Shown: positions 47,340 through 47,672, counted from the first letter of the stretch. The stretch is 64,000 nucleotides of DNA from Patescibacteria group bacterium (GCA_040389365.1 JAZKAB010000009.1:44816-108815), one strand, 5' to 3'. A program made the numbers and translations. Notes: generated from the letters alone by a model not told the origin.

Positions 47340-47507
47340 GTGAAATGGAAGAACCTACTTATAGGCAGGTGTCCTAAATGCGGAAAAGATTTAAGCGAGC
47401 CTGACAGATTCGACATGCTGCGCTGCATAGGAACGCTATGCACGTTCATAGTCGCGAAGGAAAAGCTCGAATCGATCGTCGAGTCTCTCAAGAGCCGACC
47501 ATACTAA
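47340..47507 (+). CDS. small zinc-ribbon protein (GTG start), hypothetical
   Basis: A 55-aa ORF with CPKCGKDL...RCIGTLC. It is too short or non-ATG for the ORF track. Confidence 0.25.
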   Translation: MKWKNLLIGRCPKCGKDLSEPDRFDMLRCIGTLCTFIVAKEKLESIVESLKSRPY

Positions 47508-47510
47508 CTT

Positions 47511-47672
47511 ATGACCCTAAAGACACCAGTAAAAGAAATATCGGAAAAGCTTGGCGTCAGCACCCAGGCTGTTTACCTGTGGAAGGCCGGCAAGTCTTTG
47601 CCTTCTTCCAAGAACCTGCTAAAGCTTGCGGAAATGGAAGGAACGACAGTGGACAGCCTTCTAAATAGCTAG
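47511..47672 (+). CDS. Cro/XRE-like helix-turn-helix regulator (53 aa)
   Basis: MTLKTPVKEISEKLGVSTQAVYLWKAGKSLPSSKNLLKLAEMEG is a classic Cro/CI-type HTH. It is not in the ORF track because it is shorter than 60 aa. Confidence 0.5.
   Translation: MTLKTPVKEISEKLGVSTQAVYLWKAGKSLPSSKNLLKLAEMEGTTVDSLLNS

Follow-up and report, generated by a model that had tools for sequence, protein, structure and literature searches.

Does the podovirus-like prophage carried by a 64,000-nucleotide stretch of a Patescibacteria group bacterium encode its own repressor, and is that repressor one of two very small genes that lie close together at 47340-47672? The stretch (hereafter the window) comes from a 113-kb contig of a metagenome-assembled genome (MAG). 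A sequence-only reading of it had described the two open reading frames (ORFs) as a zinc ribbon and a Cro-like helix-turn-helix (HTH) protein, had called them the only visible regulators of an immunity region, and had suggested that lysogeny control here may be unconventional. We find both ORFs, the first of 55 residues (aa) from a GTG and the second of 53 aa from an ATG, with a palindromic element upstream, as it had said. We propose, with a probability of roughly 0.55, that the 53-aa product is a minimal Cro/CI-type HTH protein that represses three prophage promoters via a repeated 18-bp palindrome. A literature search returned no work on repressors of Candidate Phyla Radiation prophages, a field in which gene regulation is without experimental knowledge, and megablast and blastn-sensitivity searches of 50,697 phage records gave no match.

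Judged by its profile matches, coding signal and predicted fold, the 53-aa ORF is a genuine XRE/Cro-type HTH gene, and this part of the earlier description is borne out. Its product scores 28.6 bits against Pfam HTH_3 (PF01381; curated cut-off 23), with residues 7-42 aligned to profile positions 12-47 of 55, and matches phrog_8 ('transcriptional regulator') at 6e-9. Its codon-usage log-likelihood of 21.2 bits is close to the true in-frame average (in 55-codon windows, in-frame mean 26.7, standard deviation 11; off-frame mean -24.8, standard deviation 19). A single-sequence AlphaFold2 (AF2) model (pLDDT 90) has four helices and reaches TMq values of 0.64-0.83 when superposed on the DNA-binding domains of ImmR, P22 c2, DdrO, 434 Cro, lambda repressor and SinR; Foldseek gives a probability of 1.0 but E only 0.04-0.4. 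Since the Pfam alignment spans only profile positions 12-47, helix 1 of the canonical five-helix fold is absent, and the protein is an HTH only, with no C-terminal oligomerisation or S24 autopeptidase domain. A word-indexed protein search with it returned only the protein itself. The gene had been called unlisted, and this is only partly so: it is missing from a track of ATG-initiated ORFs of at least 60 aa and is present in GenBank, where an identical protein is MES2225004.1 ('helix-turn-helix domain-containing protein'). No other HTH_3 or CI-like protein was found when essentially all prophage ORFs were scanned, in agreement with the earlier statement that no CI-like repressor is present.

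The palindromic element is an inverted repeat: two 24-nt arms, at 47123-47146 and 47243-47266 and with 96% complementarity between them, enclose 96 nt. Each of the two arms forms an 18-bp palindrome of its own, TTGCAAG-N5-CTTGCA. The two copies are mutually inverted, so that the 144-bp element resolves into two candidate operators, O_L and O_R, arranged around a 96-nt spacer. Exactly three perfect copies occur in the window (47125-47142, 47246-47263 and 51458-51475, the last being the candidate operator O_E), against about 0.002 expected per 64 kb for 13 specified bases by our estimate. In a shuffle test, 11 matches were observed against 3.2 when up to two mismatches were allowed, and 5 against 0.83 with a tighter pattern. 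The double-operator pattern, sought in 185,579 genomes, returned only unrelated tandem repeats in a Lachnospiraceae MAG.

In all three window palindromes one half-site doubles as the -35 hexamer of a sigma70-type promoter. We name these predicted promoters P_L, P_R and P_E. P_R would drive the zinc-ribbon and HTH genes and probably the lysin gene; P_L would read into two divergent small membrane-protein ORFs, with a leaderless transcript predicted to start at or near the ATG at 47094; and P_E is the predicted early promoter. The layout is not that of a classical immunity region: the divergent partners are small membrane proteins rather than a repressor (Pfam and PHROG scans of the 62-aa and 72/78-aa products gave no HTH, and there are no homologues among the related loci described below), and the HTH gene lies directly upstream of the lysin gene. 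The -35/16/-10 layout is shared by host promoters of the window, which have no upstream half-site, the clearest being TTGAAT-16-TATAGT at 9563-9590, which ends 16 nt before tRNA-Ile. Because host promoters look alike without the half-site, the phage promoters appear to be activator-independent and the palindrome appears to be an operator added to them.

A comparison with related phages connects the HTH gene to the palindrome. Full-length homologues of the lysin number about 20; their identities span 34-52%, with about 19 reaching at least 40%, and phage contigs of 32-47 kb carry several of them. We rejected these as anchors, as the family is spread across unrelated phages with differing neighbours, and only one contig, L011, is a true relative. 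L011 (37.5 kb, from DRR213774) encodes a large terminase (TerL) that is 76% identical over 310 residues. With the conserved early gene p130 as anchor we obtained 80 more related loci from IMG/VR, for a total of 84 loci and 1.33 Mb; the comparison covered some 18 kb of L011 and, for the others, +/-10 kb. L011 encodes a 52-aa homologue of the HTH protein (57% identity), missed by the gene caller and located directly upstream of the lysin gene as in the window, in which the turn and recognition helix (GVSTQAVY) and the following W are identical. L011 also contains the palindrome five times against 0.69 expected (three perfect copies, two with two mismatches), all five solo and each in register with a coding-strand -10-like box. 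When palindromes with 6-nt half-sites 3-8 nt apart are considered, this is the only one that recurs at least three times in the prophage, and likewise in L011. At all eight sites in the two phages, TTGCA(A/T/C) stands 16-17 nt upstream of a TAnAnT box and faces a gene start. The weakest of the eight is the L011 site at 8333, where the -10 (TACGTT) is poor and some 600 nt pass without a + strand gene.

Among the 84 loci, both the HTH homologue and the palindrome (at most one mismatch) are found in L011 only. The palindrome is therefore present in both of the phages that have the HTH gene and in none of the 83 loci that lack it. The zinc-ribbon family, on the other hand, is present in 19 of the 84 loci without the HTH, usually downstream of p130 in the early region, and is absent from the 18 kb seen of L011, where an unrelated 141-aa ORF precedes the HTH gene. 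From this distribution the HTH gene and the palindrome travel together and the zinc ribbon travels independently, which contradicts the view of the two small genes as a regulator pair. The only other protein exclusive to the window phage and L011 in these comparisons is the membrane protein p70.

Several further sequences touch on these motifs. The loci L016-L019 were rejected as relatives of the HTH gene, as they belong to unrelated phages and have only the STQAVYLW helix in common with it. One of them, the high-GC phage contig L016, encodes a 73-aa HTH protein with this helix (7944-8165) and has one perfect TTGCAAG-N5-CTTGCA at 3879-3896, 4 kb from the HTH gene, which may be coincidence. The Lachnospiraceae repeats (RUG596; L002 1451-1583 and L003 7252-7438) are tandem intergenic units of about 57 nt, each with the palindrome TTGCAAGCAAAGCTTGCAA. 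Perfect copies of the DnaA-box consensus TTATCCACA are found in the window at 49193-49201, after the lysin stop, and at 51646-51654, abutting the candidate attachment core at the right end of the prophage. In L011, DnaA boxes are enriched (11 against 4.1 expected), and those at 2821, 3566, 5996 and 8831 (0-1 mismatch) overlap four of the five operators or sit 0-9 nt upstream of them.

With comparative support that is strong but indirect, from the co-occurrence of gene and motif, we infer that the HTH protein would bind the 47123-47267 arms, and the palindrome TTGCAAG-N5-CTTGCA(A) generally, presumably as a dimer. A protein bound at the operator would occlude the -35 hexamer and block RNA polymerase, and the HTH protein would thus repress its own operon, the divergent operon and the early promoter; at P_R this would amount to negative autoregulation. 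We prefer repression to activation because the promoters resemble unassisted host promoters and because small Cro-type HTH proteins of this fold without extra domains are typically repressors. It is unlikely, in our judgement, that the HTH protein instead binds the palindrome as a class II-type activator of its own operon, the lysin gene, the membrane-protein operon and the early promoter. For such an activator the geometry relative to the -10 boxes would fit, with a palindrome that has its centre near -40 and extends into the -35; TTGCAA and TTGCAC match TTGACA at only 4/6 and 3/6 positions; and both phages link the HTH gene to the lysin gene, which is what one would expect of a late or lysis activator. 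However, host promoters without the site have -35 hexamers that are equally imperfect and the same spacing, so that no activator seems to be needed, and a positive autoregulator acting on the early promoter would leave the prophage nothing for silencing.

It is similarly improbable that the palindrome is not the site of the HTH protein at all and that the 144-bp element is instead a structured RNA or small RNA (sRNA), a terminator or insulator, an insertion resembling a miniature inverted-repeat transposable element (MITE) whose terminal inverted repeats are 24 nt long, or the binding site of some other protein, in which case the HTH protein would act on a different target. Such readings draw on the fold of the element, which reaches -76.3 kcal/mol (z -9.6) over its whole length, and on the spacer, which has a GC content of 55% against 24-40% in its AT-rich intergenic neighbourhood and folds far better on the + strand (-43.7 kcal/mol, z -5.5) than on the - strand (z -1.9), as would be the case for a transcribed RNA. 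One of its hairpins carries a GAAA loop, and an inward promoter-like sequence, TTGCAT-17-TATTAT at 47138-47166, could transcribe it. Nevertheless, the copy at 51458 and the five copies in L011 are solo, with neither partner arm nor spacer, and a -10 box stands in register with every palindrome. The arms have no target-site duplication beside them, the element has no Rfam match at gathering scores or at E<=10, and the spacer has neither a second copy in the window nor a relative in the 84 related loci. On these grounds the arms are best read as promoter-operators, and the spacer may still be a separate RNA, whether sRNA, leader or terminator. Rfam thus gave no reason to assign the element to a known RNA family, and the solo palindromes, the lack of a target duplication and the single copy of the spacer led us to discard the MITE-like interpretation. 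We also set aside an anti-Shine-Dalgarno sRNA, whose spacer transcript would begin CUCCUCC, given that almost no gene in the genome uses a Shine-Dalgarno sequence. A GC-rich non-coding stretch of about 240 nt also occurs in L011 (5764-6010), upstream of the operator of the HTH operon; it has a moderate fold (z -3.3), matches neither a tRNA nor an Rfam family and does not resemble the window spacer in sequence.

The zinc ribbon requires a different interpretation. Its homologues, conserved residues and predicted fold show that the 55-aa ORF is a real gene, absent from the annotation, and that it belongs to a phage zinc-ribbon family not described before. Codon usage gives an ambiguous 0.7 bits, and a phmmer search of 1.84 billion cluster representatives gave 66 matches at E<=1e-3, four of them at E<=1e-10. 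Many of the matches are about 120 aa long and consist of two tandem copies of the domain; further homologues lie on short contigs that offer no gene context. The cysteines are arranged as C11-P-K-C14 ... C29-x4-C34, and in an alignment of 26 single-domain members W3, L6, C11, P12, C14 and C34 are invariant and C29 (at least 90%), F36 and I38 nearly so. The GTG start is validated by the motif M-x-W-x-N-L, which is conserved at the N-termini of the homologues themselves, and there is no in-frame start upstream of the GTG. The AF2 model (pLDDT 87) has a short N-terminal helix, a three-stranded ribbon (residues 17-19, 26-29 and 37-39) and a C-terminal helix, with two Cys knuckles on a three-stranded sheet as in the zinc-ribbon fold class, so that the product is indeed a zinc ribbon as first described. 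The exact sequence was not found in a collection of 15 billion proteins, and a word-indexed search returned nothing. Among the curated families considered (Pfam Zn_Ribbon_1, DNA_ligase_ZBD, Zn_ribbon_Top1 and Ogr_Delta, and PHROGs) none matched; the best was DNA_ligase_ZBD, at 16.3 bits against a cut-off of 25.8, and no Pfam or PHROG family matched consistently across the 26 members. Fold and sequence searches of the PDB gave only generic zinc ribbons (RNA polymerase RPA12, eL43, EMI1), the fold matches all at E>0.4. The GenBank accessions run consecutively from MES2225003.1 (the 1722-aa gene upstream) to MES2225004.1, so that the zinc ribbon, and the two divergent membrane-protein ORFs with it, are unannotated there. 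Its distribution among the related loci and its place behind P_R indicate that the zinc ribbon is an independent early-gene module, co-transcribed with the HTH gene here, and not a demonstrated regulator; nothing in our analysis points to regulation. Two apparent relationships were dismissed: the match of L001 is spurious (a CPKCGK in the C-terminus of a ParB-like ORF), and paralogy with a Cys-rich 51-aa ORF downstream of the lysin gene (49389-49544) is not significant.

The close spacing of the two genes raises the question of whether they form one unit, either as a split or read-through MqsA-like protein or with the zinc ribbon as an anti-repressor or co-repressor partner of the HTH protein. 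They are in the same frame and 3 nt apart, with only TAA CTT between them (47505-47513). A true zinc-ribbon-HTH fusion of 92 aa with the helix TTQAVYLW exists in IMG/VR contig L017 (7848-8135), and MqsA is known to have the same domain order. Against this, the fused translation leaves the HTH_3 match at profile positions 12-46 and gives no match to an MqsA model; TAA is a normal stop throughout the window; members of the zinc-ribbon family end near the HTH junction or carry unrelated tails; the two genes are unlinked elsewhere; and no toxin gene is adjacent. We consider a single unit very unlikely, and we reject a fused or read-through MqsA-like protein, because the HTH_3 match is not extended, MqsA is not matched and the pair is not conserved. 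A further alternative, in which the lysin gene has a long 5' leader and at least one of the two ORFs is open by chance, is effectively refuted: the low codon score and missing annotation of the zinc ribbon and the lack of a Shine-Dalgarno sequence before either start would allow it, but the HTH is above the Pfam cut-off, strongly coding and conserved, the zinc ribbon has 66 homologues with a conserved N-terminus and cysteines, and a missing Shine-Dalgarno sequence is no argument against a gene where almost no gene in the genome has one.

A number of points weigh against repression by the HTH protein as we propose it. The protein lacks the canonical helix 1 and has no obvious dimerisation domain, and the position of the palindrome near -40 would suit a class II activator as well. 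The strongly structured spacer is neither needed nor explained by operators alone. If P_R is the sole promoter of the lysin gene, a lysogen would co-express lysin with the repressor. L011 has no integrase in the part seen, so that the HTH protein may be a general regulator of early promoters rather than a lysogeny repressor. Finally, L011 is also the closest relative overall, so that the co-occurrence of HTH and motif could in part reflect shared descent, and this co-occurrence was seen over some 18 kb of L011 and +/-10 kb of each other locus. The HTH protein may serve to maintain lysogeny, or it may be a Cro-like protein for early shut-off that was inherited from a lytic ancestor; lysogeny control may then be unconventional or not, as far as the suggestion made from the sequence at first sight goes.

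Integration offers a further means by which the early genes may be controlled. An integrase, host flanks (ribosomal protein genes on the left, restriction-modification genes on the right) and 14-nt direct repeats mark the window phage as an integrated temperate prophage. The chance of a 14-mer match inside the two boundary intervals, which were set by synteny with L011, is about 3e-4 by our estimate. Because the repeat lies inside these boundaries, the prophage would extend over about 36.3 kb (about 15389-51669), similar in size to the related phage contigs. The gene order equals that of L011 with two exceptions: an integrase cassette lies between the lysin gene and p70, and the candidate att core lies between P_E/O_E and p54, the first early gene. 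L011 has the order lysin, p70 homologue, terminator, small - strand gene, operator/promoter (8849), 50-aa membrane protein and p130 homologue. This 50-aa protein (p50; gene at 8941, about 50 nt past the operator/promoter) is 36% identical to window p54 (pairwise E 8e-9). In the circular phage P_E would read into the early operon starting at 15504. With the attachment site placed after P_E and ahead of the early genes, integration would apparently separate the early operon from its promoter, and the operon would regain P_E only after excision; a host terminator lies at about 15290-15320, upstream of attL. No integrase homologue is found in any of the 84 related loci, the 18 kb seen of L011 included. 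It is conceivable, but on balance doubtful, that the 53-aa HTH protein without a CI-type partner is the whole lysogeny switch, locked additionally by the split early operon, and that the phage recently took a lytic-to-temperate route via the integrase cassette between lysin and holin.

Other observations concern the ends of the prophage and the cassette. The inferred prophage includes a tRNA-Met gene (51165-51235), placed after p70 and ahead of the early promoter, at a position where L011 has no tRNA; we rejected it as the integration site, as it has no repeat at the left end. Two ATCCACA repeats are found at 15433-15451. The cassette region, inserted relative to L011 at 49144-50943, contains about 740 nt without convincing coding signal, a bidirectional terminator-like hairpin (49335-49354) and the Cys-rich 51-aa ORF mentioned above (- strand, codon score -6.6 bits). 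On the left, host genes extend to about 15.3 kb (RsmI-type methylase, S41 peptidase, ribosomal proteins L9 and L27). Beside attR lies a low-GC (34%) restriction-modification island (52317-54334, - strand) that encodes a C5 cytosine methyltransferase with an N-terminal MerR/HTH_17 domain and, adjoining it, a 250-aa ORF without a family match, presumably the restriction enzyme.

Table 1. Features of the window discussed in the text; operators and attachment cores are candidates and promoters are predictions. TM, transmembrane.
Feature	Position	Strand	Details
attL core (candidate)	15389-15402		TAACGTCGCACAAT; 14-nt exact repeat
p54	15504-15668	+	small TM protein, first gene of the early operon
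Large terminase	22062-23486		
Portal	23520-25535		SU10-type
Adaptor	35684-36340		SU10
Polyvalent protein	41511-46679	+	1722 aa; MES2225003.1
Two small membrane-protein ORFs	46685-47112	-	62 aa with two TM segments; 72/78 aa with one TM segment
P_L (predicted)	47103-47130	-	TTGCAA, 16 nt, TATTGT; into the membrane-protein ORFs
O_L (candidate)	47125-47142		left arm; TTGCAAGTATTGCTTGCA; - strand half-site TTGCAA is the -35 of P_L
Spacer O_L-O_R	47147-47242	+	96 nt; folds into a three-way junction with two long stable hairpins
O_R (candidate)	47246-47264		right arm; ATGCAAGCAATACTTGCA(A); inverted relative to O_L
P_R (predicted)	47259-47286	+	TTGCAA 47259-47264, 16 nt, TATACT 47281-47286; from promoter scan
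Zinc-ribbon gene	47340-47507	+	55 aa, GTG start; product MKWKNLLIGRCPKCGKDLSEPDRFDMLRCIGTLCTFIVAKEKLESIVESLKSRPY
HTH gene	47511-47672	+	53 aa, ATG start; product MTLKTPVKEISEKLGVSTQAVYLWKAGKSLPSSKNLLKLAEMEGTTVDSLLNS
Lysin	47698-49143	+	papain-like N-terminal domain, PG_binding_1, C-terminal lysin domain; directly 3' of the HTH gene
Tyrosine integrase	49885-50814	-	Pfam Phage_integrase 2.9e-26; MES2225006.1
p70	50944-51156	+	two-TM holin-like protein
O_E (candidate)	51458-51475		third copy; TTGCAAGTAATACTTGCA
P_E (predicted)	51471-51498	+	early promoter; TTGCAC 51471-51476, 16 nt, TATACT 51493-51498; across attR
attR core (candidate)	51656-51669		TAACGTCGCACAAT; 14-nt exact repeat

Among the remaining features (Table 1), the 1722-aa protein has a weak, below-cut-off match to the PARP/ART-PolyVal ADP-ribosyltransferase family (residues about 327-439) and a faint C-terminal HNH match, and its gene ends only 5 nt from the stop of the convergent membrane-protein ORF. 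The lysin is 'peptidoglycan-binding protein' MES2225005.1 in GenBank. The sequence TGTACA-CTT-TGTACA (47683-47700) stands immediately ahead of its ATG (47698) and overlaps it; this motif may form a small hairpin or supply a TACACT -10 from which the lysin gene would be transcribed without a leader, and its counterpart in L011 is TGGTATAAT at 6605-6613. Shine-Dalgarno sequences are nearly absent from host and phage genes across the window, and TATACT-like -10 boxes are often found a few nt before starts (for example 6135-6165, 9563-9606, 13824 and 50929-50946), which suggests that leaderless or very short-leader mRNAs are widespread in this Patescibacteria genome.

The locus offers a concrete candidate repressor-operator pair, a 53-aa protein and an 18-bp site, with comparative support, host-like promoters and a candidate attP. 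Its value would lie mainly in being the first repressor/operator pair for a Patescibacteria phage that is supported by comparative genomics. It also brings to light a zinc-ribbon family that is present in about a fifth of a large group of uncultured phages of about 35-40 kb. As a standard HTH/operator circuit in an unusual host, it would contribute annotation and a model system and not a new principle. If a single HTH switch combined with a split operon proves true, it would represent a minimal temperate route in a lineage otherwise without integrase among the 84 loci.

How does this system compare with those already known? The HTH protein is like the DNA-binding domains of 434 Cro, P22 c2 and ICEBs1 ImmR in that it is small, matches HTH_3 above the cut-off and has a predicted fold that superposes on theirs, and its candidate operators are like those of Cro/CI phage repressors, with multiple palindromes of conserved half-sites and variable centre placed on promoters that include the regulator's own. 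Unlike Cro/CI systems, it has 53 aa and four helices, no divergent cI shares its operators, and its gene lies directly upstream of the lysin gene instead of heading the early operon; unlike the lambdoid OR/OL tripartite arrays, its operators are single. The lack of a divergent cI sets it apart from lambdoid Cro proper, and the lack of a C-terminal domain from CI/LexA-type repressors. The order of a zinc ribbon followed by an HTH_3-type HTH is that of MqsA-type antitoxins, whereas in the window the two domains belong to separate ORFs, Pfam and NCBIfam give no MqsA match for the fused sequence, no MqsR-like toxin is adjacent and the pair is not conserved. The zinc ribbon itself is like the late activators P2 Ogr and P4 Delta and like Mu Com in being phage-encoded, about 55-70 aa long and provided with four Cys in two knuckles (CxxC...CxxxxC); on the other hand, Pfam and PHROG scans gave no match to their families, and the M-x-W-x-N-L and F-x-I motifs are peculiar to its family. 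Lastly, the proposed arrangement at the attachment site recalls the 'split-operon' control that Bertani is said to have described for P2 in 1970, in which the attachment site reportedly lies between the promoter and int, integration disconnects the two and excision rejoins them. In the window phage, too, the 14-nt repeat and the synteny with L011 place the attachment site between a promoter and the genes that it would serve. In P2 it is int that is cut off, whereas here the whole early operon would be cut off from P_E.

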